DNA from: a virus
Virus record (IMG/VR): IMGVR_UViG_3300048918_000116
Location: 7,245-71,244 of that record
Length of the DNA stretch: 64,000 bases
Reading direction: 5' to 3' (one strand)
Below the pieces are notes generated by a model. That model was not told where the DNA came from, ran no database searches, and was given only the letters and a program-made list of their open reading frames with translations. Positions within the stretch are counted from its first letter, which is position 1, and each line of letters opens with the position of its first letter. The position numbers and the translations under genes are program-made. This document shows, piece by piece, positions 23,703 to 49,117 of this stretch.

Positions 23703-25600
23703 ATGCACAATATTCCACTCAACACGCACATTGAATCGTTCGACCGTGAATCTGCGCTCGTGGATGAAGTGTGCCCTCTTACGGATACGCCACTCAACCT
23801 AGAAGAAGGCAATTATGTTTTCTTCTACGACTATCCGATGAACGAAGATGTTTGTTTCAATCATCGCCTAACGCCAGCAATGAGCGTTATTGATGTGCTT
23901 CTGTTAGCAACAGAAGATTACAAAGAAATCTACAAGGACTATGACAATACTTGGGGGGGGGGCCACAGTCTGAATAACCTTTTCTTTGAAACGGTTCGCA
24001 TTGCACCGCAGACCAAGGAAGTTTGCTTTAATATTGGTTCGTAACTATGAAAGTTCTAACCGCACCCACAGCACTCGCACTCATTGCAGCAATGCACGAG
24101 ATTGTCAAAGGTGAGTCCGAGTTCTGCACTTGGGAAATAGTTCATAACCCAACTGGTATGTCAATCCTCATCTTCAACAGTGCAAGTGAAGTAATTGGTG
24201 AAGTTAAACAGTCGTATTAACTGGAGTCAATAATGGCAATTCACTTATTGTACGTCTACATTGAAGAAGGTGACGGAATGTCTGAAAATGCGCTGGAAGA
24301 AGCAGTGCATGACGGTAACTACGTTGATCTTACTCTGTCAAACAATATGGCGCTAGTAGTTAGTGCCAAGGAAATGTTGGATGATTATATTGCATTGAAA
24401 GGAATTTAAATGGCCTTCTTTGAACCTACACAAGAACGTATTGATTATCTTATCGACATGTATAGTGAAGGTGGTTTTGAGTCTGCTATGATTACTGAGA
24501 AATCAGATCATCATTACTACGAAACCGAATTGCAAGATATCGGTCCATTGTATATTATGGATGATTTTGGCAATGCACAAATTGTGGCCTTTGAAATGTT
24601 CGGACAGGAAATGTTCATCTTTCCTCCACTCAAAGTTTTAACTTAACAGGACAACTAATGGACCAACATCTTATTCGTTACCTCGCGCTCATAGCGGCAG
24701 CGAACGCCCGTGTGGCAGGTATGCAAGCGGAGAACAAGCTCAACGAGTTCTACCAAGTGCGTCCAGCTTATGGTGAAGACCACTTTAATGCGATCGCCAA
24801 CGAGCTTGAAGCTTTATCTACTGAAATAGTCAACTACAGAGGTTAATATGACTTTTGATGAATTATACAATGAATCGCTAACGCGTCTTGATGCTTACAT
24901 AGCGACTCAGAAAACCCAAGACCAAATCCTTGACGCTAAGCATGTAAAGCGCCATGTTGAAATCAACAAAAGGTTTTACGAGCACCGTCACGCTAAAGGC
25001 GAGCTCCTGTATATTTGCAGCTCTTGCGGTCAGCTTGAAGCGGCTACTTACACGGAGCCAACCCGAACCCAAATGCTCGATCGCAATGTTTGCTTTCATT
25101 GCAATTACTGGGCAGAAATTGTTACCGAACATCCGGTAAATCGCGTCATTGTTGACGGTAAAGTGTACAGCGACGCGGGTAATGATGACGGGCATTCTAT
25201 CAGCAGGTTCCGCGGTCACGGTGGGCATGTATGGCACATTCAAGACGGTAACGGACATCGCTGGGAGACTAACAACCTCTGGTTCAATGGTGTCGTTCCA
25301 GAAGAGTATCGTGTCAAATTGCCTGACAACGCCAAGTTTCTTTATCCTAACAAATAGGAGGATATTATGACTGAACGGGCAACAGCATTCTCAACACCTG
25401 ACGAAATTTCTTACTTTCGTTTCGCATCAATTAAGCAGCGTTTGAAGCTTGAATCGGTCGGCCTTAAGTTTCGTGGCGGCAGTACACGAAGTCTGGTCGC
25501 CAAAGAGTTTGGTCTTAAGCCGCGAGCACCGTTCGCAGAATACATCGCCTACTGTGAATCGCAAATGGCTATTCTGATTGCCAAAAAGAAGCAATCTTGA
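23703..25600 (+). other. small early hypothetical genes (23703-24044, 24410-24646, 24658-24846, 24848-25357, 25367-25600 and two shorter ORFs)
   Basis: Co-oriented ORFs with RBS; 24848 ORF has CxxC...CxxC motifs. Confidence 0.6.
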
Positions 25601-25695
25601 ATAGTGAACCAATCCAAAAATGTTACAATTAATCTTTAGCGTTTAGCTGCATTTTAGCGCACAATGTAATTGTACCGCAGCAGCAAGCAATATCA

Positions 25696-25760
25696 GCCAC
25701 ACTGATGACGACCTTAATGGTTGAAACCCGCAATCTTCAATCTTCACGCGGGTCTGTGGC
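25696..25760 (+). ncRNA. type I hammerhead ribozyme
   Basis: GCCACA-CTGATGA-c-GACC(TTAAT)GGTT-GAAA-CCCGC(16 nt)GCGGG-TC-TGTGGC; predicted cleavage after GUC at 25754. Confidence 0.85.
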
Positions 25761-25792
25761 AGGTGCCACGTTTAACTCTACAGGAGTGTATC

Positions 25793-26950
25793 ATGACTGC
25801 ACAGAAATCCAGCAGCAAGTCTGCAACCAAAAGCCAGCCAAAGCCGGCCAATAAGTCTGCGGCGAAGCCCGTTCAGGTGGCACCGCAAACTACGGTCGCG
25901 TCGGTACAAGAGCCGTCAGCTGCTCAAACCGCTGAAAGCTCGGCCGCTCCGAACATTGTGCAAGCATTACTTGCCAATCCGGATATGTCTACCAAGCTGA
26001 CCAAGCTGGCCTACGAAACAGGTGTACTGCCTGACCGTCGTCAGGACGAACGCCGCCACGATGGTGACAATGCAATGCAGTTCGCGGTGACGCAACTCAC
26101 CACTCCGGCAGCAAGCGCAGCAGCTAGCACCGAAACCGCACTTGCACCGTTTACAGCACCCCCAAGCGAACCGCAAGCTAGCGCACCGCTTACAGCACCG
26201 ACAGCAGCACCCGCAAGCGTACCAACAGCAGCAACAGCGGAAATGAATCCGACGCAACTGGCACAGTTTCAGGCTGCAATGCTTGCACTTGGTCAGCAGT
26301 TCGGAATGCCGGCGGAAGTTATTCAGAACCTCAGCAATCCTTCAACACTGTTGGCTACTACGCCGCGTTCAGCGAAGGATACACGGAACAGTATTACTCG
26401 TCCCGGCGCTGATACGAAGACCGGCAAGGTGTGGGCAATAGGCGATGCAATTAGTATGCAGAAAGGCGGTACGCCAGAAACTACGCCAGCAAGCATTGCT
26501 GAACTGAAGGCGCACCCTGACCTTCGCCAGTTTAATGACCACACTATCCGGACGCAATATGCTCGCTGGAGGCAATATTACGGCGTAAGCGGTCGCGTTC
26601 AGTCGGAAATGGTTTCTGCGCCGGCTACCAAGCCAACGCAAAAGGCGTTCCCGAAAATGACTGATGACGACTTCGCACGTTACATGGATTTGCGTAGCCG
26701 TGGTCAGTTGGATGAGGGTTACAAAGAATGGCTTGACTTTGAAGAATATCGTCGGAATCCCGCAGCAGGGAATGCAGCAGCCGGCCAAGCTCAAGCACCA
26801 AAGCAGTTCGCACCAACCGAAGCACCGATTGGGCCAATGGCTGATGAAGTTTACAACAGGCTTCTTCTGTTGAAGAACAACAACACGCTGCCAATCAACT
26901 TCCAAGCAGCATTTGACGCTGAAACCGCTCGCCGGGCCTCAGCAGCGTAA
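25793..26950 (+). CDS. Ala/Pro-rich protein with HTH-like domain (paralogue family A)
   Basis: Start re-placed at ATG 25793 after AGGAG; ITRPGADTKTGKVWAIGD...TIRTQYARWR. Confidence 0.8.
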   Translation: MTAQKSSSKSATKSQPKPANKSAAKPVQVAPQTTVASVQEPSAAQTAESSAAPNIVQALLANPDMSTKLTKLAYETGVLPDRRQDERRHDGDNAMQFAVTQLTTPAASAAASTETALAPFTAPPSEPQASAPLTAPTAAPASVPTAATAEMNPTQLAQFQAAMLALGQQFGMPAEVIQNLSNPSTLLATTPRSAKDTRNSITRPGADTKTGKVWAIGDAISMQKGGTPETTPASIAELKAHPDLRQFNDHTIRTQYARWRQYYGVSGRVQSEMVSAPATKPTQKAFPKMTDDDFARYMDLRSRGQLDEGYKEWLDFEEYRRNPAAGNAAAGQAQAPKQFAPTEAPIGPMADEVYNRLLLLKNNNTLPINFQAAFDAETARRASAA

Positions 26951-26966
26951 TGCCTGGCGCATTGAA

Positions 26967-26995
26967 GCCGGAGAGGGCAACTTCTCCGGTTATTT
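26967..26995 (+). terminator. intrinsic terminator
   Basis: GCCGGAGAG-GGCAA-CTTCTCCGGT followed by TATTT. Confidence 0.55.
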
Positions 26996-27070
26996 GCGTT
27001 CGCTCTTGTAAAGCTTCAACGATAGGCCCTTTGCCTATCGTGGGCGCTTTGCCCAGAACTGGAGGTTATT

Positions 27071-28009
27071 ATGAAACCCAATCTTAAGCTCAAGATTTTG
27101 CCATTGCTAGTGTTATCAGCATGCGGCGGCGGAGCTCCCGACCATGTACTCACCAGCACAGTAGGCGACACACCTGTTCAGTGCGAAACATTCCTCACAC
27201 CGAACTCATCGCCCAACACAGCTACGACCAATTGCATTAGTCCGACGCTGCCGTTTCAGCCCACAGTGCAGCCAGCTTTGCCTCCCGGCGTAACCGCGCC
27301 AATTCCTCCGCAAGTGCCAACTACACCTGCGAAGGTCGTCAACGCACCGACGACAGCACCCACAGCGTCGCCAACCGCACCAACAATGGCCACTCCGGTT
27401 CTGGTAGTCAGCGCACCTAGCGTTAGCTATTCGCAACGGGCAACTTCCGACCGTACCGACGAGCAAAGCAAGCAGCAAATTCACGTCATATACCTGCTCG
27501 CTAAAGGCGCCGTTGATCGCAACCTTGACAGAGTTGGTAGCATTCAGAATTACACCGACGCTATGAATAGCTGGCTTACTGATCGTACTAGCCAGAAATT
27601 CAACTTTGACCGTTATCAAAGTTACGTTGATGTAACTACGATAGCTTTGTTGAATGAAGATAGCTGGTACGATAGCCAGCCTAACCAGTTCAAACGCGAT
27701 GCTATCGAGAACGAGCTACTGACTCGCGGCTTCGTAAATAGCGCCAACAAGCGTTATCTTGTCTTCTACGAAGGCTACAACCCTGACGGTAACTGCGGCG
27801 ATTCAAGAAACGTAACTAGCATCCTTTATCTGCTCGCTGCGGATGGCCGTTGCGCAACCGAGCTTGTCGCCATACATGAACTCCTTCATAACTTCGGTGC
27901 AGTTCATAGCAGCGTCCCGAACGATATCATGTATAGCGGCCCGCTTAACCGTTCCACCAGCTACACAATCACCGCGTCCGAACTCAAAGGCGCTTACTTG
28001 GAGCAATAA
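27071..28009 (+). CDS. lipoprotein with metzincin-type zinc metalloprotease domain
   Basis: Lipobox LSAC, Pro/Thr linker, HELLHNFGAVH and Met-turn DIMY. Confidence 0.7.
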   Translation: MKPNLKLKILPLLVLSACGGGAPDHVLTSTVGDTPVQCETFLTPNSSPNTATTNCISPTLPFQPTVQPALPPGVTAPIPPQVPTTPAKVVNAPTTAPTASPTAPTMATPVLVVSAPSVSYSQRATSDRTDEQSKQQIHVIYLLAKGAVDRNLDRVGSIQNYTDAMNSWLTDRTSQKFNFDRYQSYVDVTTIALLNEDSWYDSQPNQFKRDAIENELLTRGFVNSANKRYLVFYEGYNPDGNCGDSRNVTSILYLLAADGRCATELVAIHELLHNFGAVHSSVPNDIMYSGPLNRSTSYTITASELKGAYLEQ

Positions 28010-28011
28010 TT

Positions 28012-30024
28012 ATGAAAACCGAATTTAGCGATCACAAACTCTTCGTATTGGAAGCCCTTCATCGCGGGCTACAAATCTTTACATACCCTCCTTCACACGA
28101 AGGTATGCACGAAGACGATATGCTTGAGCCAACAGTTGTTGGCATTCGTCAGATTAACCCAAAACCAGACTATCCCGGCGACAAGTATATTGATATTGCG
28201 TTCGGGATGGGTTACTTGATATGCGTTCGCGAAAACGAATGGATATTTGAAGGTGTGCTATTTGATACCGATGCTGAGTTTGCAGATTGGTATGAAGAGC
28301 AAATGTTGAAAGATTTAGATGAGCAGATTCAATTAATAAATAAGTCAATTGGCCCCGACGACAGCAACAAGGGTTAAAATTAACGTGCAACAACTTTTCA
28401 ACCACAACCGAAAGGAATAATATGGCCAGGCAAAAAGAATATACACGGAAAGTTCGTGCCGTGTATTACGAAAATATGAAGGCTACAAAAGTAGTCAAAG
28501 AGACTCGAGGTACTCGTCCTGAAGGTATGGTTCAAGCTGCTTTTCGTCATCTGCGTTACAATCACTATGCCGCAATGGTTGTTGAGGTATTTGACGATGA
28601 TGGTAAGCTTTATGACATTCTCAAACGCCATATTAACGGCAAAGTTGAGAGCATGTTACAACAATCTAAAATAAAGGATTGATATCATGACAACCCAAAA
28701 CAAGCGTCATGCTAATTACGTTAAGATGGCCGAGTTTCGCGCGGCTGCTGTGGCGTACATTAACACCATTGATAAGTTCACGCCTGGCAGCGAAATCATT
28801 GGTTCGCTGTCACACGTACTTTCTAGCATGGGAGTAAACGAGAAACAGGCCAATGTTCAGCTAAGAGGCTTAGCAGAAGCAGGTCTTATTGAAATCAACA
28901 AATCAGGTAAGAACTTCTCCTACAAAGGCAATAATGGCGACATCGCACTGGCTGCAAAGTCCGGTACAATGTGGGCTCGGGAAGCAAAGGCTGCTTTTTA
29001 CCACACTCAGCCTGAAGCGACCGTAATGGCGGTTCAACAAAGCTCAGTTAAGCCAGGCAAAGCCAGTGCGCCAACGTTCACAGTTGATCTGGTAAAGAGC
29101 TCTGGGCGCGTGAGGGTTGCGCTTGGAGGTGTGGTCATTGAAATCGGTGTCGTTGATAACTAGGAGAAATTATGAAACACAAACCAGAAGAGTACCGCCA
29201 CATCCGTGCGTGGGGACGTCATCTTCATTCCTTCAACTATTACATTGAAGACCAACAATGGAGAGCATCCGAAGAACACGCTCCGTTGAACGCAATCTTC
29301 AAAGGCACTGACGGAACTTGGCATACTGTAGATGGTATTGCCAGCGAAGAGCTTAAGACTAAGATTGAGCACGATGCCACTCGGGATGTATTTTAGCGTT
29401 TGCACCGTACCGCTAGCGCAAAACACCGCGCTTGCGCATGCGGCAAGGGGGGTAGGCGCGGTTTTTAGCTTGCACCCCTATGCTGCATAAGCGCAGCATT
29501 AAAAATAGCGTGTAGCGCGTTTAAACAAGCTGTCCGTTTTAACTCAACAAGGAGTGATTATGGCAAGGCGCGGTGCTCTCAATGTAAAAGACTTTGAGTT
29601 TTTAAAAGCTGAGAAGGAAAAAGGACCGAAGACCGTATGGGTGGCCCGATTTCCTCTCTGGTTAAGGATGAAACCCATTGAATGTGAAGATCCTAAACTA
29701 TTTATCAAATTGGTAGCAAAGATTCAGAAGATGTACCCAGATATGAAAATTACTATCCACAAGATGAAACTTTCAGATTCAGACAACCTTACAATAAGGG
29801 AGGAATAAATGAGTGAACTCTGTACGAAAGAGAGACCAATGCCTGCGAACCAAGACCAAATAGGTCAGAATTGGGTTCACGATAATTGCAAGATGTTAAG
29901 CTTTATAAACTATGTTGCTCACTTCAAGTGTATGAACTGCGGTTATGAATTTCGGTCATCTTATAATACATCTAAAAAGAGAGGAATAAATGCTAACGGT
30001 GCAAGAGGTAAAACCAAAGCTTGA
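28012..30024 (+). other. small hypothetical genes (28012-28377, 28422-28682, 28687-29163 winged-helix-like, 29172-29396, 29554-29808, 29809-30024)
   Basis: Co-oriented ORFs with RBS. Confidence 0.6.
29386..29533. repeat. GA/TC-free island of a dispersed motif family
   Basis: 148 nt with no GA or TC; shares TTTAAACGCGCTACA, TAGCTTGCACC, GTTTGCACCG and AGCGCAAAAC with 57064-57207. Confidence 0.7.
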
Positions 30025-30487
30025 AAATCTCAAAAATTGGCTGATTGCCCGCGGTGCTGAGGTTTTTGATCCAATTGGCGATTTTGAGTTATTTCGGTTT
30101 AAGACGCAAAAAGGCTGGTCATCTTTTTATTTTAAGAAGACCGGCGTTATTACATTCTTCGGTGAGGCTGAAACTGTATGGAACGCTTTTACCAAGAATA
30201 CTAACTGGAGAGCATGCCCACGAGTAAAGCGCCCTAAAGCGCATAACCGGCATTTTGATGCAATTCGCAAGCGTGACGGCGATCTATGTTTTTATTGCCG
30301 ACTTGAAGTTGAAAATATAGACGCTTCTGAAGAACATTTGGTGGCATTAGCTCACGGAGGTCCTAATCATATAAGCAACAAGCTTCTGGCGCACAAGAAA
30401 TGCAATAACGCTGTTGGCCATCTTAGTGCCGCCGAGAAGATTAAAATTCATGTAGCCGCTATTACAGCCATCCGAAATAAAAAATAA
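29990..30487 (+). CDS. HNH endonuclease
   Basis: RDGDLCFYC...EHLVALAHGGPNHISN...AHKKCN. Confidence 0.85.
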   Translation: MLTVQEVKPKLENLKNWLIARGAEVFDPIGDFELFRFKTQKGWSSFYFKKTGVITFFGEAETVWNAFTKNTNWRACPRVKRPKAHNRHFDAIRKRDGDLCFYCRLEVENIDASEEHLVALAHGGPNHISNKLLAHKKCNNAVGHLSAAEKIKIHVAAITAIRNKK

Positions 30488-30497
30488 GGAAGACGCC

Positions 30498-30980
30498 ATG
30501 GAACAAATTTCAAGAGTACAACAAGAGGTTGCATATCCAGATTATGAAGATTACATTGTAGCATCAGCTCTAGCTATTCTAAGCAAGAGATTGAAAAAGA
30601 GTACACCGATAACGGATCCTGCCGTCATGCGACAGTATTTAGCCGTCCTGTTAGCGGAGCGAGAGCACGAAGTTTTTGGTCTAGTATTCCTAGACTATCA
30701 ATCTCGTGTCATAGCTGTAAAGGAAATGTTCAGAGGTTCGCTTAACCACAGTTCAGTGTATCCGCGAGAAGTCATTAAGGAAGCACTTTCCTTCAATGCA
30801 GGGTTCGTGATTTTGTTTCACAACCATCCGGGCGGGTTGCCTACGCCTAGCAAAGGAGACTTAGACCTTACCAAAGGTCTTGCAGACGCACTCAAGTTAG
30901 TGGATATTGTAGTATCCGACCACATTATAGTGTGTGGTCATAAAACCTATTCCTTTAAAGAACAGGGTAAGTTGGGCTGA
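30498..30980 (+). CDS. radC: RadC-family JAB domain protein
   Basis: EHEVF...VYPREV...HNHPGGLPTPSKGD...DHIIV. Confidence 0.9.
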   Translation: MEQISRVQQEVAYPDYEDYIVASALAILSKRLKKSTPITDPAVMRQYLAVLLAEREHEVFGLVFLDYQSRVIAVKEMFRGSLNHSSVYPREVIKEALSFNAGFVILFHNHPGGLPTPSKGDLDLTKGLADALKLVDIVVSDHIIVCGHKTYSFKEQGKLG

Positions 30981-31114
30981 TATAAGACACATTCGCTCAC
31001 CAAATACAATAATAAAGAGCGAATTGTGACGCAGTAAATATTTTTTGTTCCCCGTTGTGATATTTTTGCTTGCGTATTACAATATTGTTTTGTCCCTCCA
31101 ACACACTGTTTAAC

Positions 31115-31363
31115 ATGACAGATCAACCTATCTTGTCAGCAGAAGAGACAGCACAAAGTCGCTTCAATAAAACTTATATAAGTTCTGCTGAAATCATGCA
31201 AGAATTAAATGTTTCGCGCCAAGTTATCCAGTATGCAAGAAAGACTGGTAAGCTGCCTGGCGCTATTGTCATCCAAGAAAATTCAGTTTACATTTGGGAG
31301 AGATCGGAGATTGAAGATTACCTACACGCATGGAAAATAATTCTAAACGCGCGTAGGGGATAA
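31115..31363 (+). CDS. AlpA/excisionase-like HTH protein
   Basis: YISSAEIMQELNVSR...GKLPG...YIWER; upstream of primase. Confidence 0.65.
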   Translation: MTDQPILSAEETAQSRFNKTYISSAEIMQELNVSRQVIQYARKTGKLPGAIVIQENSVYIWERSEIEDYLHAWKIILNARRG

Positions 31364-31366
31364 AAC

Positions 31367-33769
31367 ATGATCTTTACATACGATCGCATTCCGGAAGAAA
31401 TGCGTTGGGATCGCGCCTGGTGTTTAGCCGGTCCTGACGATACAGGCAAGTATAAAGCTCCGCATAGTTTTGGCACAAGGGGGATCTTTAAAATCCCGCC
31501 TACCCAAACAGACCAATTGCGCGACCTAGAGGGTGTTATCGACGCTGCGGAGCTGTATAAGCCTTGCGGTATTGGTTTCATGCTGTCCAAAGACGACCCG
31601 TACACCTGCATTGATTTGGACATTAAAAATGAACGAAACGAACCAGACAAATCCAAATGGACTACTAACGAGCAGCTCGAGAGGTTTTGGAAAATCATAC
31701 GCGCTTTTGATAGCTATACTGAACGGTCCGTCTCAGGCTGTGGTTTCCATATTTGGATCAGAGGGAAAATTGGAAAGGGATGTAAGCGTGATGGAGTTGA
31801 GGTCTATAGTCAAGAACGCTTCATCGTATGCACAGGCGATGTCGTTGTTGACAAAGATATTGAAGACCGACAGGGGCTTTTGGATGTATTGGTCGCCGAA
31901 ATTGGAAACGCCAAACAAGGCAAAATTGAGCTTACAGATTTACTCGAATCCGATGACGATACGATCATCTTGGATCGAGCAAGAAATGCTGAAAACGCAG
32001 ATAAATTCAACAAGCTATACAGTGGGGATTGGGGAGGTTATCCTTCTCAGTCCGAAGCCGACTTGGCGCTTATGTCCATTTTCACGTTTTATACCAAGTC
32101 CAATGCACAGTGCCGACGTCTATTCCGAACTTCGAATCTGGGGAGGCGCTCGAAAGCTACCAAAAATGATCGTTACCTTAACGACACATTACGGCTTATC
32201 CGCGGGCGCGAAGCGCGGGAAGAAGAAGTAGAGTTCGCGGGCGCTGCTCAAGCTGCTGCCTTGCTAGCTAACCTCAACACACGCGAGGTTGTAGATCAGG
32301 AGACCGACGAAACAACGACCGAAGAAATACCTGCTCATCTTATTATGGATGACGCAGACTTACCTGAAGAAGAACTTGACGAAAATGCTAAGGGCCTTCC
32401 ATGGCCGCCCGGTTTAGTTGGCGAGATTTCGCGTTACATCTTTAATGGTGCGCCACGTCCAGTAAAAGAAGTTGCTATAGTGTCAGCACTTGGACTTATG
32501 GCTGGCGTATGCGGTAAAGCATTTAACATTCCGCAGTCTGGTTTGAATGTGTATATTGTTCTAGTAGCTAAGTCTGCTATTGGTAAAGAAGCGATGCACA
32601 GTGGTATCGCGAACCTTCTTGCGTACATTGCAGAATCTGTTCCTGCTGCTATGAGCTTTGTTGACTTTACCGACTATGCTTCAGGACCAGCGTTGACGAA
32701 AGCTGTAGCCGGCAATCCTAGCTTTGTAAACGTTTCCGGTGAATGGGGTCGTAAGCTACGTCGTCTAGGTATGGAAGACGGACGCGATGGGCCTATGCAA
32801 CAACTCCGCACAGTGATGACAAACCTGTACCAAAAGTCAGGGCCTAAGTCTATTGTCGGAGGTATTGGTTATTCAGATAAAGAAAAGAATGTAGCGTCAG
32901 TCTCTGGTGTAGCATACAGTATGATTGGCGAAACTACTCCGAGTACGTTTTACGACGCGCTTACAGAGTCAATGATGGAAGACGGCTTTCTAAGTCGGTT
33001 TACTGTTATTGAATACAACGGGGAGCGCCCGGCTAACAACAGCCGCGGAATTATTGCTCCTCACCAAGCGTTGAAGGATGCCTTGTGCAGTCTTTTCACA
33101 CAGGCCGCAGCACTCAACCAACGCTTTGAAACCCAAGAAGTCACGCGCAGTTACGAGGCAACACAAATACTTGACGCCTTTGACAAAGAATGCGATAGTA
33201 AGATCAATGGTAGCGAGGACGAAGGTTTCCGGCAAATGTGGAATCGCGCGCACCTTAAAGTGTACCGCATTGCTGCATTGCTCGCAGTAGCAGACGACCA
33301 TGTGAATCCGGTTATCAGCAAACTGCACACAGAGTGGGCGCTGGACGTCATACGGCGCGACATTGGTGTTATGAGTCGTCGTATTAGTTCTGGTGATGTT
33401 GGTGTAGGTGACTCTTCGCGCGAGAAAAAGATCCTTACCATTATTCATAAGTTCCTCAAAGAAGGTGCGCCACCTAGCTACGGCGTACCGGAAGAAATGC
33501 GCAAGAATGCAGTTGTTCCACGGAAGTACCTACAGATCTGCACACAGCGGGCGTCTAATTTTACGTCGCACCGCGGAGGTCAAAATATGGCACTTGACTT
33601 AACAATCAAGTCCCTTATTGATAGCGGATACTTGCAAGAGTATGCCAAAGACAAAGCTGCAAAAGACTTTGACTTCTTGGGTAAATGCTATCGTGTGATC
33701 ACTCTGCCTTTGAATACAGCCGAAGGTAGGGAGCTTCAAGCGACACGTAAAAGTTTAGGATCTAAGTAA
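31367..33769 (+). CDS. DNA primase-polymerase with C-terminal DUF3987-like/helicase-like region
   Basis: GIGF...CIDLD...YTERSVSGCGFHIW...EVYS prim-pol motifs; YPSQSEADLAL. Confidence 0.85.
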   Translation: MIFTYDRIPEEMRWDRAWCLAGPDDTGKYKAPHSFGTRGIFKIPPTQTDQLRDLEGVIDAAELYKPCGIGFMLSKDDPYTCIDLDIKNERNEPDKSKWTTNEQLERFWKIIRAFDSYTERSVSGCGFHIWIRGKIGKGCKRDGVEVYSQERFIVCTGDVVVDKDIEDRQGLLDVLVAEIGNAKQGKIELTDLLESDDDTIILDRARNAENADKFNKLYSGDWGGYPSQSEADLALMSIFTFYTKSNAQCRRLFRTSNLGRRSKATKNDRYLNDTLRLIRGREAREEEVEFAGAAQAAALLANLNTREVVDQETDETTTEEIPAHLIMDDADLPEEELDENAKGLPWPPGLVGEISRYIFNGAPRPVKEVAIVSALGLMAGVCGKAFNIPQSGLNVYIVLVAKSAIGKEAMHSGIANLLAYIAESVPAAMSFVDFTDYASGPALTKAVAGNPSFVNVSGEWGRKLRRLGMEDGRDGPMQQLRTVMTNLYQKSGPKSIVGGIGYSDKEKNVASVSGVAYSMIGETTPSTFYDALTESMMEDGFLSRFTVIEYNGERPANNSRGIIAPHQALKDALCSLFTQAAALNQRFETQEVTRSYEATQILDAFDKECDSKINGSEDEGFRQMWNRAHLKVYRIAALLAVADDHVNPVISKLHTEWALDVIRRDIGVMSRRISSGDVGVGDSSREKKILTIIHKFLKEGAPPSYGVPEEMRKNAVVPRKYLQICTQRASNFTSHRGGQNMALDLTIKSLIDSGYLQEYAKDKAAKDFDFLGKCYRVITLPLNTAEGRELQATRKSLGSK

Positions 33770-33822
33770 ATAGATTTAATGCTTTTGCGCTACAATATAA
33801 CTTAACTTAACAAGGAACAAAA

Positions 33823-34377
33823 ATGTCAAATTTCTGGTTAGTATCAAGAATGAACGAAGCGTTTGGAAACCCTGAAGGTGATCCAAGCAATATTGACATT
33901 GATCGCATCCGCAGTCAGTGCAAGAATATCTTGGACGAGTTTGTCGAGCTTATGGTTGCGCTCGGTGCAAACAAATCCCGCATTGAAGCAGCGCGTACAA
34001 GCTTCCTTGCCCAGTTGGTCTTTGACAGCAAGTTTGAAGACGACATTAGCCATGTACGCGATGCGCTTATTGACATCCACGTCTTTGCTTACGGCGCGCA
34101 TCACCTTATGGGTATCGATGCAGATCGCGACATGGGTTCTGTTATCAGCGGCGTAATGTCACGCTTTATCAAAGACGAAGCAGACAAAGAGGCAACTATC
34201 GCCAAACATGCAGCAAAAGGCGTCATCGAAGTCTACTTCGAAGGTGAATACCCTGCAATGATTATGAAGTCTGCTGTCGACCAACCTGACGCACCAAAAG
34301 GTAAGTTCCTGAAGTCCGCAAGCTACAAAGAGCCAGTGTTTTACCAACTGCATCCAACGCCGATCGTTAGCTGGTGA
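33823..34377 (+). CDS. MazG-like nucleotide pyrophosphohydrolase
   Basis: ILDEFVEL...VRDALIDIHVFAYG...GKFLK. Confidence 0.7.
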   Translation: MSNFWLVSRMNEAFGNPEGDPSNIDIDRIRSQCKNILDEFVELMVALGANKSRIEAARTSFLAQLVFDSKFEDDISHVRDALIDIHVFAYGAHHLMGIDADRDMGSVISGVMSRFIKDEADKEATIAKHAAKGVIEVYFEGEYPAMIMKSAVDQPDAPKGKFLKSASYKEPVFYQLHPTPIVSW

Positions 34378-34601
34378 TTCAGCGGCGCGTTTGATCCGCT
34401 AGTTTGATTTTGTAGTAAGCTGTGCCATGCCCGACATTCCAATTCGGTTAAGACATGGTGCAGGTCGTCCGGTGGTGTCTGGTAGCCCGTAAGGGTAGCG
34501 GCCCGTGGGCAACTTCTCTGAAGACCCAAAGGTGATCCGTGCATAAGTGAACTCTACTCAGTGAGCGATAACCCGGCAAGTCAGTGGAAAGCTGACTTTA
34601 A

Positions 34602-34690
34602 CTTCAAGTACGTCTTAAATGGAAAAGCGGTTCTGGTTGACGGGGCGGGATACCGGAGCGTCAGAGGTTCGAGTCCTCTCTTGAAGGCCA
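34602..34690 (+). ncRNA. tRNA-like RNA with aberrant anticodon arm (8-bp stem, 14-nt loop)
   Basis: Acceptor CTTCAAG/CTTGAAG-G-CCA; T arm AGAGG-TTCGAGT-CCTCT; GTTCTGGT/ACCGGAGC stem. Confidence 0.75.
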
Positions 34691-34774
34691 ACATTTGGGC
34701 ATCTGGATAAAGATGGCAGCTGAAACCAGCCCTGCCAGGCACCCTTAGCAGAGGGCCGGGTGTCCAAATGTTGG
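34688..34774 (+). ncRNA. long-stem structured RNA starting at the CCA of the tRNA-like element
   Basis: 19-bp closing helix CCAACATTTGGGCATCTGG/CCGGGTGTCCAAATGTTGG with G-U pairs; two inner hairpins. Confidence 0.6.
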
Positions 34775-34798
34775 TAAGACTAACTAACGGAGAAAGAA

Positions 34799-35221
34799 AT
34801 GACCACACTAGCTTCGCCAGCGGCTGCTCCCGCAGTCACGCAACAAGACCTCAACGATTGGTACGATCTGCAATCAAAGCTCGCTATCATTAAAGATCAA
34901 GAGATGGAATTGCGCAAGAAAATATTTAGCGCATACTTCCCATCGCCAACGGAAGGTGTCAATACTGCACCGCTGTCCGAAGGATGGGTGATCAAAGGTA
35001 CGCACAAGATTACACGTTCCATTGACGAAGCTATGCTCTTGGCAAAGCAGGACGAGCTTCTAAAAGAAGGTATTGCTATCAACGACCTTATCCGTCGCAA
35101 ACCGGAACTTAACCTTAAAGCCTACAAAGCTTTGCCCGACCGCGCGAGCCTCCTGTTTAGCCAAGTGCTTGACATCAAGCCTGGTTCACCTTCCCTTGAA
35201 ATTGTTAAACCAAAACGATAA
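34799..35221 (+). CDS. conserved phage protein of the replication module
   Basis: EMELRKKIF...FPSPTEGVNT...IKPGSPSLEI. Confidence 0.7.
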   Translation: MTTLASPAAAPAVTQQDLNDWYDLQSKLAIIKDQEMELRKKIFSAYFPSPTEGVNTAPLSEGWVIKGTHKITRSIDEAMLLAKQDELLKEGIAINDLIRRKPELNLKAYKALPDRASLLFSQVLDIKPGSPSLEIVKPKR

Positions 35222-35457
35222 TGCCTCGCAGCCGCTATACACAGGGACGAGCGGACGCCAACCGCTTGTTTGACTGGATTAGGGAAGAATACAACTTCCC
35301 TACTGACGCCAAAATGGCAAACGCATTGCATCTTGACTTTACTTTAATTAGTAAGTATAGAAGTGGAAAAGAGTTATTGAGTTCTTTAGGTCTTCTTGCA
35401 GTACACGAGTTCACTGGTTTACATCTCAAAACAATACTTGAAAAGGCACAAGGATAA
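35221..35457 (+). CDS. Cro/C1-type HTH protein (paralogue family C)
   Basis: NRLFDWI...TDAKMANAL...ISKYR...VHEFTG. Confidence 0.65.
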   Translation: MPRSRYTQGRADANRLFDWIREEYNFPTDAKMANALHLDFTLISKYRSGKELLSSLGLLAVHEFTGLHLKTILEKAQG

Positions 35458-35639
35458 ATTATGAGCATGCTACATACTGTTTCAACCATTGGTAGAGCCC
35501 TTGATCCAAATAGTAAAGAGCGGTATGGGCGTGTTGGCGAAGTACGTCTTACAGTAAGAGACGTACAAGCACTTCTTAACGACTGGAAGCGTTTGGATAA
35601 AGAAGTCCGTGAACTTAACGAATTAATGAAGGCTAAATA

Positions 35640-35963
35640 ATGTCGAATGAATTACTTGCAGTTAGCACTGCATTTGATGATATAGATGCGCAGATTAAGT
35701 TTGCTGCCGAGGTGACGGAAATTGTAGAACAGTTGAAGCAAATGCTCATCGCAAAGAACCGCAAGTATGGTGATGCGGCGCTTAATCCTTCACGCACGTT
35801 TGCAACGTCGTCTGCCGCTGAGCTTATTAATGTTCGCATTGACGATAAACTAAGCCGTATTAAAAACCGTCAAACCGACGACGATGAAGACCCAGAGTGG
35901 GACTTAATGGGCTATCTTGTTCTTAAGCGTATTGCTGTCAAGCGCGAAAAGGGTTCAAAATGA
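35640..35963 (+). CDS. nucleotide-modification-associated domain 1 (DUF1599-like) protein
   Basis: KNRKYGD...RIDDKLSRI...DLMGY. Confidence 0.7.
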   Translation: MSNELLAVSTAFDDIDAQIKFAAEVTEIVEQLKQMLIAKNRKYGDAALNPSRTFATSSAAELINVRIDDKLSRIKNRQTDDDEDPEWDLMGYLVLKRIAVKREKGSK

Positions 35964-36907
35964 CAATTAAAGCGATGCGGGCAGCAAACTACGATCCCGC
36001 TAAAATTAAGTTCCCCGTTTGGGCAGAGCCAAAGATTGACGGTGTACGAGGCTACAATCCGGACGGCATATTGCTAGCTCGCACAATGAAGAAGCTTAAG
36101 AACAAATATACAACGGAGTTCTTTAGCGGTCCGGACTATATAGGGTTTGACGGTGAGCTTGCAGCAAACCACGAATGTCATCCAGACTTGTGTCGTCTTA
36201 CGAGCAGTGCAGTAGGCACAATCGAAGGTAAGCCTTACGTCCTATGGCACATCTTTGACTACGTTACAGAAGCTACTCGTGGTCTGCCTTATTCGCGGCG
36301 CAAGGATATTTTGGAGCGCAAGATTCGCGATCTGCAAGCCAACGGAAAGTGTGGTTATCTACGGGTTGTTCCGCACATTGTTTGTAATAATATGGCAGAA
36401 TTAACGGCAGCCCATGAACACTTCATGGAGCTTGGTTACGAGGGGACTTGTTTCTATGGGCCTAATGTCACGCATAAAGAGGGCAAGAGTTCGCCTACGC
36501 ATAATGGGGTATTGCGTATTAAGGATTTTATCGATGCGGAAGCTGTTGTCCTTGAGATTGTCGAAGGTGAGACAAACAACAACGAAGCTCAAGTTAATGA
36601 ACTCGGGCGAACATTTCGTACCTCACATCAAGAGAACAAAGTCTCCAACGGAATGGTAGGTAGCATGACGTGCAAGATGTTAGACGACGTTTATGACCTA
36701 CATGACCATACAAAACTCTTGTTGGCTAAGCATCAAATTATTACCGTTTCGCCTGGCAAGATGACGGAAAAAGATCGCATTTACTATTTCCAGCATCAGA
36801 TTGGTTTAATTGGACAAGCGATCAAATTTAAGTTCTTTCCCAAAGGAATTAAAGACAAACCTCGCTTCCCTACATTTGAAAGCATACGCTTGCCTGAGGA
36901 CATGTAG
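35960..36907 (+). CDS. ATP-dependent DNA ligase
   Basis: EPKIDGVR, FDGEL, FD, GYEG, KPRFP motifs. Confidence 0.92.
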   Translation: MTIKAMRAANYDPAKIKFPVWAEPKIDGVRGYNPDGILLARTMKKLKNKYTTEFFSGPDYIGFDGELAANHECHPDLCRLTSSAVGTIEGKPYVLWHIFDYVTEATRGLPYSRRKDILERKIRDLQANGKCGYLRVVPHIVCNNMAELTAAHEHFMELGYEGTCFYGPNVTHKEGKSSPTHNGVLRIKDFIDAEAVVLEIVEGETNNNEAQVNELGRTFRTSHQENKVSNGMVGSMTCKMLDDVYDLHDHTKLLLAKHQIITVSPGKMTEKDRIYYFQHQIGLIGQAIKFKFFPKGIKDKPRFPTFESIRLPEDM

Positions 36908-36921
36908 ATACAAAATAGTTG

Positions 36922-36950
36922 TTGCACTGTTGCACTAAAAATCGCATAAT
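36922..36950 (+). promoter_or_regulatory. sigma70-type promoter
   Basis: TTGCAC-17 bp-CATAAT. Confidence 0.55.
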
Positions 36951-37022
36951 ATTACTTACCTGCTTCGGCAGAGATTAACCACACTAGCTTGTCGCTCGTG
37001 TGCTCTTACTATTGGAGCCGCA

Positions 37023-37862
37023 ATGAGTATTCTTGGAACTGTCAGTAACAGTCCTACGCAATCGGGTATCCGCATTGTTCTTAGCGGTGTTGAAAAGGTC
37101 GGCAAAACGACACTTTCTTGTAATGCCCCTCGGGTCTTGCTTGTACCGCTTGAAATGGGTACAGGAACGATGCAAGTCCACAAAACACCAATGCTGACCA
37201 GTTTCGCTCAAGTGATGGCTTTGCTTGACGAAATTATAGCAAGCGCCCAACAAGGTCAGTTTGCCTTTAAGACAATCGTCTTTGACAGCGCAACAGCACT
37301 GGAACGTTTGATTCACCTAAGTATTCTCGAGCTGGATCCAAGCTACGGCAAAGATAATAAGAAAGCTGTAACAATGGAATCCGCGCTCGGTGGCTACGGT
37401 AAAGCGTACACCTACGCAAACGAGCTCTTCGGTAACTTCCTCGCTAAATGCGACACCTTGGCCATCTACGGCCATATCAATATTGTGCTGACATGTCATG
37501 TCTTTGCAGCACAAGTCCTTGATCCTACTGCTGGTGAATACAACACTTGGGATCTTCTGCTACACTCCCCCAAAAATCAAAAGACTTACGGCAAGCGTGA
37601 AATGATTACGCAATGGGCCGACGTCATTGGCTTCTTGCATGAAACAGTTTTCATCAACGAAGGCAAGAATATGAATATGGGTGTAAGCTCTAACACAGGA
37701 CGTCAGCTTGCTGTAACCCGTACTCCCGGATACGTCGCTGGAAACCGTTACGGCGTTGTTGGACCTATCGCCATCCCGATGGTTAATGGATGGAACACGT
37801 TTGCGCACGAGCTTTATACTGCTTCGGGCGTTGATATTTTTAATAGGGATGTAGTAGCATGA
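37023..37862 (+). CDS. Sak4-like AAA ATPase (ssDNA annealing/recombination)
   Basis: GVEKVGKTT Walker A; TIVFDS; GGYGKAY; WADVIGF. Confidence 0.85.
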   Translation: MSILGTVSNSPTQSGIRIVLSGVEKVGKTTLSCNAPRVLLVPLEMGTGTMQVHKTPMLTSFAQVMALLDEIIASAQQGQFAFKTIVFDSATALERLIHLSILELDPSYGKDNKKAVTMESALGGYGKAYTYANELFGNFLAKCDTLAIYGHINIVLTCHVFAAQVLDPTAGEYNTWDLLLHSPKNQKTYGKREMITQWADVIGFLHETVFINEGKNMNMGVSSNTGRQLAVTRTPGYVAGNRYGVVGPIAIPMVNGWNTFAHELYTASGVDIFNRDVVA

Positions 37863-38164
37863 GTACGAACATTGTAAGACATCAACATGCGTTATTTGAT
37901 GCGATTCGGGAGAACTTTATCGTAAAGAATGAGTTCGAACTTGCTTGCGCACTTAACATATCAAGAACGCATGTAGCAAAACTTCGTATGCGGTTGATTC
38001 CAGTTACGGATGAAGTTATCCTTTCCGCACACGATGCAACAGGTTGGCCCATTTCTAAGATCAAGGAATTGGTTGCTGAATCTAAACTTCAATCTGTAAC
38101 TGTGAGGAAACGTCAAAATGGTAACAAAGAAAACAGTAGCAAAGACTCCGGCACCGCGTCTTAG
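37859..38164 (+). CDS. Cro/C1-type HTH protein (paralogue family C)
   Basis: LFDAI...KNEFELACAL...VAKLR...PV...AHDATG. Confidence 0.65.
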   Translation: MSTNIVRHQHALFDAIRENFIVKNEFELACALNISRTHVAKLRMRLIPVTDEVILSAHDATGWPISKIKELVAESKLQSVTVRKRQNGNKENSSKDSGTAS

Positions 38165-38312
38165 TGCGGAAGACAAAAAGTGGATGGCGCGTGACGACTT
38201 GCGTACCATCCAACAAGCGCAGAGTATCGCAGCTGATCCAAAGCGCATGAAAGCAGCGCAGCAAGAAGCACAAGCGCAGGTCAAGGCGCTTCAAAGTATT
38301 GCAAAGAAGTAG
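38118..38312 (+). CDS. small hypothetical protein
   Basis: KWMARDDLRTIQQAQSIAADPKRMKAA; basic, helical. Confidence 0.55.
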   Translation: MVTKKTVAKTPAPRLSAEDKKWMARDDLRTIQQAQSIAADPKRMKAAQQEAQAQVKALQSIAKK

Positions 38313-38369
38313 ATTTAAACCGCGTTGCTGTCTGGCGGATAACAGACAGCAAACAACTTAGGATTTAAA

Positions 38370-39185
38370 ATGACAGCATTTTCTTTTAATGCAAAAACAG
38401 TTGAACCGGATCAGGGCCGTATTGGTGCATTGCCCGCTGGATGGTATCCTGTGTCTGCAGACGAAACCGAACTGAAGCCTACAGGTAACGGCGGCGGCGA
38501 ATACATCAATGTTCGTTTCACCATTCTTGACGGCCCTTACAAGAACAGCAAGTTCTGGCATCGCTTCAATACAAAGAACCTCAGCGACAAAGCGGTCGAA
38601 ATTGGCTACAAACAACTCAGCGCGCTGATGCATGCAATTAACGTGCTTGAAATCAAAGTGCTAGCGCAACTGCAAAACGTCCCACTGTTCGTCAAGGTGA
38701 AGTTGGTTCCTGCTGAATACGAACCTGACGGCGTTACTGTCAAGTACGAAGCTAAAAACGAAATCACTGCATTCCGTTCAATCACCGACGAAGCAGCTCG
38801 TGCAGGTTTCCAAGGTGTCGGCGCCAAGCCAGCCGCAGCAAAAGCTCCACCTCCACCAACTGCGGCAGTAGCAGCGCCGGCAGCAGGTTGGAAACCTCCT
38901 GTAGCGGAACAACCATGGACTCCCCCAAACACGGCAGCGGCAGTCGCAGCAGTAGTTCAGGCTCCGGTTGCCGCTGCCGTGACGGCTCCGGTTACTTCTA
39001 CAGTGACCCAGACCTCGGCCCCTGCTGCTGCACCAGTAGTTCAACCAAGTTGGGCAACTGCGCCAGCTACGGTTGCCGTGGCCCCGACGACGACGGCTGT
39101 CCCATCACAGGAACAGCCTGCTGCCCAGGCTGAAGCTCCGGCTAGCACAGAAGTTCCACCTTGGATGGTTCCGCCAGCAGAGTAA
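38370..39185 (+). CDS. single-stranded DNA-binding protein (DUF669-like)
   Basis: ALPAGWY...FTILDGPY...AVEIG...NEI; Pro/Ala tail ending PPW. Confidence 0.8.
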   Translation: MTAFSFNAKTVEPDQGRIGALPAGWYPVSADETELKPTGNGGGEYINVRFTILDGPYKNSKFWHRFNTKNLSDKAVEIGYKQLSALMHAINVLEIKVLAQLQNVPLFVKVKLVPAEYEPDGVTVKYEAKNEITAFRSITDEAARAGFQGVGAKPAAAKAPPPPTAAVAAPAAGWKPPVAEQPWTPPNTAAAVAAVVQAPVAAAVTAPVTSTVTQTSAPAAAPVVQPSWATAPATVAVAPTTTAVPSQEQPAAQAEAPASTEVPPWMVPPAE

Positions 39186-39244
39186 TCCGACTACGGTGTG
39201 CGAGCGAATGTCAAGAGGCCAGTAGCTCGTAGTTAGTCCGTAGA

Positions 39245-39268
39245 GGCGCCCTTTTCGGAGGGCGTTTT
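39245..39268 (+). terminator. intrinsic terminator
   Basis: GGCGCCCTT-TTCG-GAGGGCGTT-TT. Confidence 0.7.
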
Positions 39269-39359
39269 AAAGTGACGAATGCAACAAAAGCTGAAAGCAA
39301 TTGCAAATACGCGGATACTCGGGATTAGCGCCGAGCGTCACTTTAAAACTGGAGGAATA

Positions 39360-40268
39360 ATGGCTATAATTGTCGCAAAAAAGACTAAAGCAGCAATTGA
39401 TGCAATGTTGGAAGCGGATCAAGGCGCTCGTTACCGCACGACGTTGAAAAATGTTATCCCACACATGGGCGACGCATATCGCGGAGCTGACGATGGGTTT
39501 CGGTCACACCTTGGAGCATCACAGATTGGTAAGGTGTGCGATCGTGCGCTATGGTACGGTTTTAGATGGGCAGTTAAGCCCAAGTTTATTGGTCGTATGT
39601 TACGACTGTTTAACCGTGGACACCTAGAGGAAGCACGTTTCATTGCGCTACTGTTATCCATTGATGTAAAGGTATGGCAGCAAGACGCTAACGGGAACCA
39701 ATTCCGTATTAGCGAATTTGGAGGCCACTTTGGAGGTTCGGGCGATGGTGTGGGCATGGGAATTCCGGACATTGAACTTAATAGTCCGTGCGTACTTGAA
39801 TTCAAAACCCACAACGATAAGTCTTTTAAAAAACTCATTACTGATGGTGTGAAAGCTGTAAAGCTAGAGCATTGGGTACAGATGCAGTCTTACATGCGAA
39901 AGATGGGCATTCCTGTCGCTTTGTATGGAGCGGCTAATAAGAACGATGACGAGTTGTATTTCGAGATTGTACATCTTGATACTGTTGCGGCAGACATTTA
40001 CATCCAACGTGCCCACACTATAATCTTCACGCGGACTCCACCAGATAAAATCCATGACTCAACAGGTTGGTATGAATGCAAATACTGCGACCAAAACACG
40101 GTCTGTCATCTTGGTGCGGAACCAGCGCGTAACTGTCGAACTTGTCACTTTGTCTCCTTTGAGGCTGACGGTACAGTTGCATGCCGCAATCCCTTTGGAC
40201 CAAAAGCCAAGCAAACCCTAACAAAAGAAGATCAACTTTCGGCCTGTACTGAATACGAGAAATTCTGA
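39360..40268 (+). CDS. Cas4-like/PD-(D/E)xK exonuclease
   Basis: RSHLGASQIG.VCDR...GSGDG...LEFKT...QMQSYM...CKYC; start after GGAGG. Confidence 0.85.
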   Translation: MAIIVAKKTKAAIDAMLEADQGARYRTTLKNVIPHMGDAYRGADDGFRSHLGASQIGKVCDRALWYGFRWAVKPKFIGRMLRLFNRGHLEEARFIALLLSIDVKVWQQDANGNQFRISEFGGHFGGSGDGVGMGIPDIELNSPCVLEFKTHNDKSFKKLITDGVKAVKLEHWVQMQSYMRKMGIPVALYGAANKNDDELYFEIVHLDTVAADIYIQRAHTIIFTRTPPDKIHDSTGWYECKYCDQNTVCHLGAEPARNCRTCHFVSFEADGTVACRNPFGPKAKQTLTKEDQLSACTEYEKF

Positions 40269-48653: not shown

Positions 48654-48657
48654 ATCA

Positions 48658-49116: not shown

Positions 49117-49117
49117 A

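Follow-up and report, generated by a model that had tools for sequence, protein, structure and literature searches.

To our knowledge, the non-coding RNAs known from phages so far are mostly tRNAs, short regulators and terminators. Phage T4 encodes two structured stable RNAs, species 1 and 2 (rnaC and rnaD), in its tRNA cluster; they are transcribed together with the tRNA genes, and tRNA-processing enzymes are the presumed agents of their release. tRNA-like processing signals also occur as mitochondrial ‘tRNA punctuation’ and as the mascRNA of MALAT1, while RNase III stalks are found in rRNA operons and in the T7 early mRNA. The HK022 put RNA and the Bacillus EAR are cis-encoded folded RNAs that cause processive antitermination in long operons by reprogramming the host RNA polymerase, with no phage protein needed; put is ~70 nucleotides (nt) long, has two stem-loops and lies just after the early promoters. 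Here we analyzed a 64,000-nt window of the IMG/VR virus record IMGVR_UViG_3300048918_000116 (positions 7,245 to 71,244, which is most of the 71-kb phage record; all coordinates are window positions). A 421-nt gap at 34378-34798, inside a long + strand block of replication genes, contains three + strand RNA modules: a multi-helix RNA of ~180 nt (module A, 34417-34598), a tRNA-like element (module B, 34602-34690) and a long-stemmed hairpin (module C, 34687-34775). For comparison, the main text of PMC10690425 describes 8,495 csRNA candidates from IMG/VR that are 29-151 nt long, with a median of 65 nt.

On the evidence of its relatives, module A belongs to what appears to be a new, small family of phage structured RNAs, of a general kind (orphan structured phage RNAs) that is known. 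Folding energy alone fails to set most of the gap apart from chance; comparison with other phages does. The whole 421 nt give z = -1.91 on the + strand, where 4 of 100 shuffles fold equally well, and z = -0.83 on the minus strand. When the gap was compared by blastn with 50,697 GenBank phage records, module A matched only AMA2 and SE2, two cultured lytic Achromobacter phages of the genus Steinhofvirus, with ~80% identity over ~180 nt; in both the match lies within an unannotated gap of ~230 nt. A megablast search with window positions 25000-45000 against the same records returned module A as the only matching stretch, and by this comparison the present phage and AMA2/SE2 are otherwise unrelated at the DNA level.

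Further copies were collected by exact-pattern scans and then checked by nhmmer and by a covariance model, R1. Confirmed copies lie on three IMG/VR contigs (L003, L004 and L006) and on the metagenome contigs L022, L023 and L024; L021 duplicates contig L006, and the copy in L022 does not differ from that in L006. The distinct module A sequences number eight (window, AMA2, SE2, L003, L004, L006, L023 and L024). They are 172-253 nt long, and all match R1 over their full length at 181-213 bits with helices H1-H6 and the invariant junction, whereas the best non-member in 270,744 bases scores 14.3 bits. The window itself scores 201.2 bits, a value that is partly circular because the window served in building R1. 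With L006 or L024 as the query, the same two GenBank records, AMA2 and SE2, were recovered. Thirteen of 16 matches to the 16-mer pattern, as well as L007, were discarded as chance matches after the nhmmer/R1 check, and so was L129, an extra locus from the H1 pattern scan without an R1 match. Two exact-pattern scans of 185,579 prokaryote species genomes and a blastn search of E. coli genomes and plasmids, all capable of detecting only near-identical copies, gave no module A match, and R1 found none in the E. coli K-12 chromosome.

The fold of module A was derived with RNAalifold and by a hand-checked structure, which agree, and pair statistics were computed on the alignment fitted to R1. The RNA consists of a 5′ hairpin (H1), a closing helix (H2/H2b) that encloses H3, H4 and H5, and a 3′ hairpin (H6). 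Across the eight-member alignment the fold has 40 pairs, with 98.1% of the 320 cells paired and 7 of the 40 pairs changed on both sides. None of 500 shuffles reached these pairing values, and structures slid by 1-3 columns gave only 29-45% paired. Together with six further changes in H4, the seven in the aligned core bring the compensatory pairs to 13. Structure conservation in homologous intergenic regions, which an earlier note on this DNA had named as a check, was thus found for 34417-34598, with covariation in eight members.

H1 is a helix of 10 bp formed by CTGTGCCATG (34420-34429) and CATGGTGCAG (34454-34463), with two G-U pairs that exist on the + strand only and with 100% of cells paired; it has undergone one compensatory change (C-G to U-A in L024) and one change from U-G to C-G. 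Its 24-nt loop keeps GCCCG, AU.CC, GG and AAGAC invariant. The closing helix predicted by RNAalifold pairs G(U)CCGG(U)G..GUC with GAU-AA-CCCGGC (34467-34577), and within it CCGG at 34469-34472 pairs with CCGG at 34573-34576 to enclose the branched domain. H3 (34482-34499; 95.8% paired, one compensatory change from C-G to A-U in L024) is capped by a GNRA tetraloop, which is GUAA in the window and GCAA in L006, L023 and L024. H5 (34539-34566) has nine pairs with internal bulges and an invariant AACUC loop; it is 98.6% paired, with compensatory changes from A-U to G-C in L006 and from G-C to C-G in L003. H6 joins AAGTCAG (34578-34584) to CTGACTT (34592-34598). Its stem sequence differs in nearly every member, with three pairs changed on both sides, and its loop, U-GGAAR-G, is fixed. 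We considered a kissing interaction between GGAA of the H6 loop and UUCC of the H1 loop and rejected it, as the middle base of AU(U/G/C)CC varies with no matching change in H6.

H4 (34502-34536) varies in length, being 35 nt in the window and 42, 42, 107, 42, 26, 42 and 27 nt in the other members, and forms a hairpin in all eight despite the differing sequences. In the four forms of 42 nt, both sides have changed in 6 of 12 pairs, and 100% remain paired. Because the differences in H4 length are not multiples of three, a conserved reading frame is excluded. The tip of H4 is a permissive site, which might be useful for tagging. In L003 (12731-12837) this tip bears a branched insertion of ~65 nt, and the rest of the RNA is unchanged.

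The functional strand of module A is the + strand. This follows from the bias of G-U pairs to that strand, from the greater stability of the sense fold over the antisense fold in 8 of 8 members, and from the constant co-orientation of module A with the flanking open reading frames (ORFs) at every locus. These findings bear out the + strand helices with G-U pairs that the earlier note had described; the helices it had named, the CCGG-closed domain, the tRNA-like element and the long stem all lie in the sequence where it had placed them. The gap also lacks a credible ORF, as the note had supposed. The sole + strand ORF of at least 30 aa inside it (34561-34710) encodes 49 aa from a GTG start, four minus-strand ORFs of 43-75 aa overlap the gap, and none of these five small ORFs has a PHROGs or Pfam match.

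None of the three modules could be assigned to an Rfam family, so that the cmscan search suggested in the earlier note returned no identity for the gap. In the 64-kb window, Rfam 15 at gathering score gave nothing except four tRNA matches elsewhere. At E <= 10, neither 34200-34950 (751 nt) nor 34417-34600 (184 nt) yielded anything meaningful; the only rows came from cyano_tmRNA, matched by 17 nt of a T-arm, and from a CRISPR repeat at 13.8 bits. The self-cleaving ribozyme classes of Rfam 15 (hammerhead, twister, pistol, hatchet, HDV-like and others), searched with modules A and C in mind, had no match at gathering score in the 64 kb and none at E <= 10 in 34200-34950. No intrinsic terminator, defined as a G+C-rich hairpin with an immediate U-run, was found for H6 or module C on the + strand of 34378-34798; a U-run follows H6 only in AMA2, SE2 and L024. 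The Shine-Dalgarno-like 9-mer AGGUGAUCC was rejected as a decoy for the 3′ end of 16S rRNA: it is intact in only 5 of 8 members, and in L006 and L024 the base of H4 takes its place.

Module A is found in varied gene neighborhoods. In this window it follows a MazG-like gene and precedes the tRNA-like module. In AMA2/SE2 a MazG-like gene lies downstream, with a primase ~1 kb away on the opposite strand. In L006/L022 the upstream gene is QueC and the downstream genes encode a QueD-like protein and QueE; in L003/L004 a MoxR-type ATPase is upstream, with small ORFs, DUF2201 and a dCTP deaminase downstream; and in L023 a DnaB-like helicase and NinB are upstream. The element starts 10-45 nt past the upstream stop codon. 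An all-against-all BLASTP comparison of the ORFs of seven carrier sequences (SE2 and L024 left out) revealed no protein common to them. RtcB, the DpdA-like protein and the MazG of this phage were found in none of the four other carrier genomes searched (L022 not among them). The relative L026 has its primase, then ~90 nt, then DUF7173, and has neither MazG nor any RNA module. As judged from these sequences, module A behaves as a self-contained cassette that moves between unrelated phages without a partner protein or a fixed neighbor gene. With no shared protein or fixed neighbor, it must work alone or with a component supplied by the host. The varied neighborhoods also show that it is not tied to replication genes. 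The earlier note had described the RNAs as hidden in the replication module, which is true of this phage, AMA2/SE2 and L023 but not of the other carriers, where the neighborhoods are of the queuosine type or contain ATPase/VWA genes. In L006 (4594-5129) and in L022, module A lies inside the queuosine-type operon, whose QueD-like product contains CANLHGHNG.

Module B (34602-34690, +) adopts a cloverleaf in its minimum free energy (MFE) fold: the acceptor stem has 7 bp (CUUCAAG/CUUGAAG), a UA spacer leads to a D-like arm that contains GG, and the variable region is 5 nt long. The T-arm (AGAGG-UUCGAGU-CCUCU), the discriminator G and the encoded CCA are canonical. The anticodon arm is abnormal; its MFE form has 8 bp and carries a loop of 14 nt. 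The fold energy gives z = +0.56. Module B is a degenerate tRNA-like element. It might instead go beyond a processing handle or decoy and decode, either as a suppressor or as a tRNA-Gln(UUG) of unusual, type-II-like form. For such a role speak the canonical acceptor stem, T-arm, 5-nt variable region and encoded CCA, as well as the cloverleaf that ARAGORN draws at its 80% threshold only, a tRNA-Gln(ttg) of 89 nt with a 7-nt anticodon loop and the anticodon UUG. That drawing has a weak 5-bp anticodon stem in which three of five pairs are G-U, position 33 is G, and the long extra arm is foreign to tRNA-Gln; the MFE form is the alternative 8-bp stem. ARAGORN at default settings makes no call for module B, which scores below 9 bits against the Rfam tRNA model, and a sibling element at 43754-43825 shares the same odd UGACGG loop, suggesting a non-decoding family. 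We therefore consider a decoding function improbable. The window has four RF00005 matches, all within 43754-44254 (threshold 29 bits), and the best clan match in 34200-34950 is a 17-nt T-arm at 9 bits. A tmRNA or two-piece tmRNA was rejected, as ARAGORN found none in the window or genome and Rfam offers nothing beyond the T-arm, whose match to cyano_tmRNA reaches 9 bits where the gathering score is 70.

Module C (34687-34775, +) is a hairpin with a 20-bp stem that includes three G-U pairs. At -49.9 kcal/mol and z = -5.54 (0 of 200 shuffles), it is the only thermodynamically exceptional part of the gap. Read as an inverted repeat, the stem spans 34688-34706 and 34756-34774 (19 nt, 84% complementary), and its three mismatches in DNA are all G-T, so that the G-U pairs exist in the + strand alone. 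The hairpin starts from the discriminator/CCA of module B and encloses 49 nt with two small hairpins. The earlier note had likened the gap to a cluster at 43.5 kb, and this likeness was found for B and C. A unit at 43829-44079 consists of a tRNA-like gene with a large insert followed by a stalk (43954-44079, z = -6.23), and its junction is 78% identical to the B-C junction over 64 columns. Both stalks start with GCCAACATT and end with AATGTTGGT, the same terminal 9-mers; the interiors differ yet are equally complementary. This pair of motifs has only two + strand sites in the 71-kb genome, and the T-loop motif of B occurs five times, the other four being in the 43.5-kb cluster. On sequence grounds, B and C together are paralogous to this unit of the 43.5-kb tRNA cluster. 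Of 90 matches to the combination of T-arm, acceptor and GCCAACATT in IMG/VR, the 88 outside the window were dismissed as ordinary tRNA ends with no return arm within 260 nt.

The sibling tRNA-like genes of that cluster (43584-43740, 43754-43825 and 43829-43957) have near-identical acceptor, D and T arms and abnormal anticodon regions. Two of the three carry inserts of ~50-90 nt, and one has a 13-nt arm with the 6-nt loop UGACGG, a motif that is also present in the loop of module B. With introns allowed, ARAGORN reports among these siblings a Leu tRNA with a 147-nt intron and a Thr tRNA with a 30-nt intron.

We propose that the gap is a string of three RNA modules transcribed on the + strand by read-through from the replication operon, and we put the probability of this reading as a whole at about 45%. 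Module A would be functional as the folded RNA itself, most probably in the form of a stable small RNA, and its invariant junction and loop nucleotides would bind a conserved host component or a small ligand. B and C would serve as processing handles. A cut by RNase P at 34601/34602, the 5′ end of B, would leave the 3′ end of A three bases past its last hairpin, and a double-strand-specific RNase of the RNase III type would cut in C, freeing B and giving the DUF7173 mRNA a clean 5′ end. No promoter-like or terminator-like site was found by a scan of the + strand within 34378-34798, which makes read-through the simplest source of the transcript. Three sequencing runs, all of DNA, are listed as holding the stretch or part of it, with no RNA run among them. 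For this proposal we take the structures, their conservation and covariation, the strand, the cassette distribution and the paralogy of B and C as established, and we infer expression, the cleavages and the binding partner. The polycistron of small RNAs suggested by the earlier note is thus supported as regards several discrete + strand structures, one of them conserved with covariation, and stays putative as regards separate expressed RNAs cut from one transcript.

Several observations weigh against this proposal. The seven other members have no adjacent tRNA-like handle (tRNA adjacency was checked at six loci), and at five loci the next start codon comes 18-27 nt after H6, a position that suits a cis-acting mRNA element equally well. 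All nine H2 pairs are invariant in 8 of 8 members, so that covariation is silent on H2, and by MFE module A does no better than shuffled sequence (z between -1.0 and +0.45 across the eight members). The family is small, eight sequences from perhaps 5-6 phage lineages, and the independent covariation events are correspondingly few. With the low score of module B against the Rfam tRNA model, its recognition by RNase P is an assumption. For B and C no relatives turned up in other genomes, and their structures rest on one genome and one paralogue.

The main rival is that module A acts in cis on its own operon transcript, either as a processive-antitermination RNA or as a metabolite-sensing leader or stabilizer for downstream genes. 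It has no promoter or terminator of its own, is always oriented with its operon in the spacing between stop and start codons given above, and sits in long operons of early, replication or nucleotide-metabolism genes; a U-run follows the 3′ hairpin in AMA2 and L024, and binding to a conserved host enzyme would explain the invariant single-stranded nucleotides across unrelated phages. A classic gene-specific riboswitch is less easily reconciled with downstream genes as unrelated as a tRNA-like element, MazG, QueD and ORFs of 48-61 aa. Moreover, the ribosome-binding sites lie outside the conserved structure, a conserved loop in the 3′ hairpin is unusual for an expression platform, and the position in the operon ranges from ~1 kb after its start in AMA2 to ~17 kb into the + block here. 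We regard a cis role as possible but doubtful. The invariant junction, covarying helices, GNRA loop and one stem of free length are also typical of ribozymes, and module A, intergenic at every locus, might be a new self-cleaving or otherwise catalytic RNA that cuts the polycistronic transcript; this phage even encodes an RtcB ligase, which joins the type of ends left by self-cleavers. That idea is quite unlikely in our view, given that no self-cleaving class of Rfam matches, that RtcB is absent from the four other carrier genomes searched, that ~180 nt is large for a self-cleaver and that nothing marks a cleavage site. A role as DNA, such as a single-strand initiation or primase-loading signal or an origin element, is suggested by the primase or helicase genes next to module A in this phage, AMA2/SE2 and L023. 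The other carriers place it among queuosine-type and ATPase/VWA genes, and the replication proteins of the carriers differ, with none in common. The one-strand G-U pairs, a GNRA loop that switches only between GUAA and GCAA, and the transcription-sense orientation at every locus all point to RNA, so that we give a DNA element hardly any credence.

Another lead concerned bacterial RNase P RNA, of which module A could be a strongly shortened descendant or a mimic, with tRNA-like RNAs or the protein of the host RNase P as its binding partners. The closing helix G(U)CCGG/CCCGGC, which has AA before it and comes after a hairpin, resembles P3-P4 with its bulged U (the sequence was compared with rnpB), and module A adjoins a tRNA-like RNA in this window. 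Chained local alignment with E. coli M1 RNA gave z = 4.5, 4.9, 5.4 and 2.8 for four members; none of 500 shuffles matched the score of the window, and 15 control RNA segments had |z| <= 2.4. An 11-nt stretch, CAGUGAGCGAU (within window 34538-34566), is identical to part of helix P18/L18 of E. coli rnpB, and the 8-mer AACCCGGC of P4 (window 34570-34577) comes after it in the same order as in rnpB. The two together are statistically unusual but without support as homology. The signal hangs on the 11-mer, which falls within E. coli P18, a part in which the Rfam consensus shows no conservation: taking the 11-mer out lowers z to a range of -0.4 to 2.4, and under ordinary gap costs the value is 1.8, a score that 23 of 300 shuffles reach. 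The comparison was also post hoc, having been chosen after the motifs were noticed. A search with RF00010 (family threshold 100 bits) that was positive in 11 of 14 control genomes left the entire 71-kb phage without a match at E <= 10, and cmscan of the 751 nt and the 184 nt at E <= 10 gave no RNase P family. In the reverse direction, R1 run without filters never exceeds 2.7 bits on the strand of rnpB. The P4-like G(U)CCGG/CCCGGC with its preceding AA is present and invariant. When its flanks were compared with CR-I (GAGGAAAGUCCGG) and CR-V (ACAGAACCCGGCUUA), GGAAA of CR-I proved to be absent, its position being taken by a variable GUC/AUG/AUU, and no UUA follows GGC. Helices P1-P3, P5-P12 and P15 were not found in canonical arrangement, H3-H5 are unlike the pairing of the similar M1 segments in the Rfam structure line, and the pairing of the matching RNase P segment cannot coexist with H5, a hairpin that covariation backs. 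With three covariance-model tests failed and the signal resting mainly on one 11-mer, we rejected membership of module A in RNase P RNA, and a derivative or mimic of it is very improbable.

A bolder reading is that module A is the founding example of a new class of functional RNA fold, either a ligand-sensing aptamer (an RNA ‘sponge’ or riboswitch) or a ribozyme, which phages of Burkholderiales-type hosts exchange as a protein-free cassette and which is wired here to tRNA-like and stalk modules for its release. We consider this rather unlikely, and the interest of module A would be higher if the aptamer or ribozyme reading were true. Six helices, ~180 nt and invariant junctions are in any case the signature of an RNA with a specific task, which could be catalysis or the binding of a host machine or a metabolite. 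This signature gains strength from the clear selection for the fold and from the ~80% identity kept in phages that share nothing else. As AMA2 and SE2 are cultured, the element is amenable to deletion, mutation and direct probing. Modules B and C suggest that the phage builds composite RNA operons from repeated processing units, and the RNA modules, the insert-bearing tRNA-like genes and RtcB together are relevant to phage tRNA biology and anti-defense.

The gap follows a primase-polymerase gene (31367-33769, +) and, directly at its 5′ side, the gene for the MazG-like pyrophosphohydrolase (33823-34377, +). Directly 3′ is a gene of Pfam DUF7173 (34799-35221, +; E = 1.4e-29), whose Shine-Dalgarno sequence GGAG and ATG (34789-34801, +) lie 14 nt past module C. 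A small hairpin, AGCGG/CCGCT (34381-34400, +), comes directly after the MazG-like stop codon and is followed by a T-rich run to 34412. It is part of the MFE fold, was not flagged in the terminator scan and has no conserved copy in the other module A carriers; this 5-bp hairpin may weakly attenuate transcription before the RNA modules. After DUF7173 come an HTH (helix-turn-helix) protein, a DNA ligase, a Sak4-like annealing protein and SSB. Farther along the window are the tRNA cluster (43.6-44.3 kb), a 7-deazaguanine gene set, RtcB, a sliding clamp and a DNA polymerase. The 7-deazaguanine set (44314-50769), directly after the tRNA cluster, encodes QueE, QueC, QueD, GTP cyclohydrolase I fused to a phosphoribosyltransferase-like N-terminus, and a DpdA/TGT-like transglycosylase, and likely leads to DNA modification in this phage. 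An HNH endonuclease gene (46779-47249) lies inside the set. The RtcB-type RNA ligase (50779-51966; phrog_1075, E = 6.6e-153) is encoded by a phage that also has the insert-bearing tRNA-like genes and the stalks; this combination suggests RNA cutting and rejoining, either for tRNA repair or for removal of the inserts. A tRNA-Pro(UGG) of 77-78 nt is present both in this phage (44180-44257) and in AMA2 according to PMC7600146; the available portion of that AMA2 paper reports one tRNA-Pro and no non-coding RNA.

In the literature covered on Steinhofvirus, on the discovery of structured phage RNAs (the main text of PMC10690425) and on phage RtcB and tRNA-like RNAs, no description of module A turned up. 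Like the csRNAs of PMC10690425, module A is intergenic in phages, conserved, supported by covarying pairs and without an assigned function, and the logic of discovery was the same, namely comparison of homologous intergenic regions combined with covariation. At 172-253 nt and with six helices it differs from those RNAs of 29-151 nt, as the main text describes them. With type A RNase P RNA (RF00010) it shares a hairpin followed by GUCCGG pairing with AA-CCCGGC, together with the 11-nt and 8-nt identities to M1 in the same order; it has no GGAAA of CR-I, P1/P2, P15 or CR-IV, it fails the covariance model, and the helices of the two do not correspond. Compared by description only, module A resembles put and EAR as a folded RNA inside long operons, where the host RNA polymerase would be the source of constraint, and resembles T4 species 1 and 2 as a small structured RNA beside a tRNA-like gene; unlike the latter, it is not beside a tRNA in 7 of 8 members. 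The layout of the gap as a whole is that of tRNA punctuation combined with an RNase III stalk: the cloverleaf of B, with its acceptor stem and T-arm intact, directly follows another RNA, and a duplex of ~20 bp comes just before the next cistron. In such layouts products are separated by RNase P and RNase III. Unlike such stalks, module C encloses 49 nt with two hairpins, and it may be a small RNA itself.

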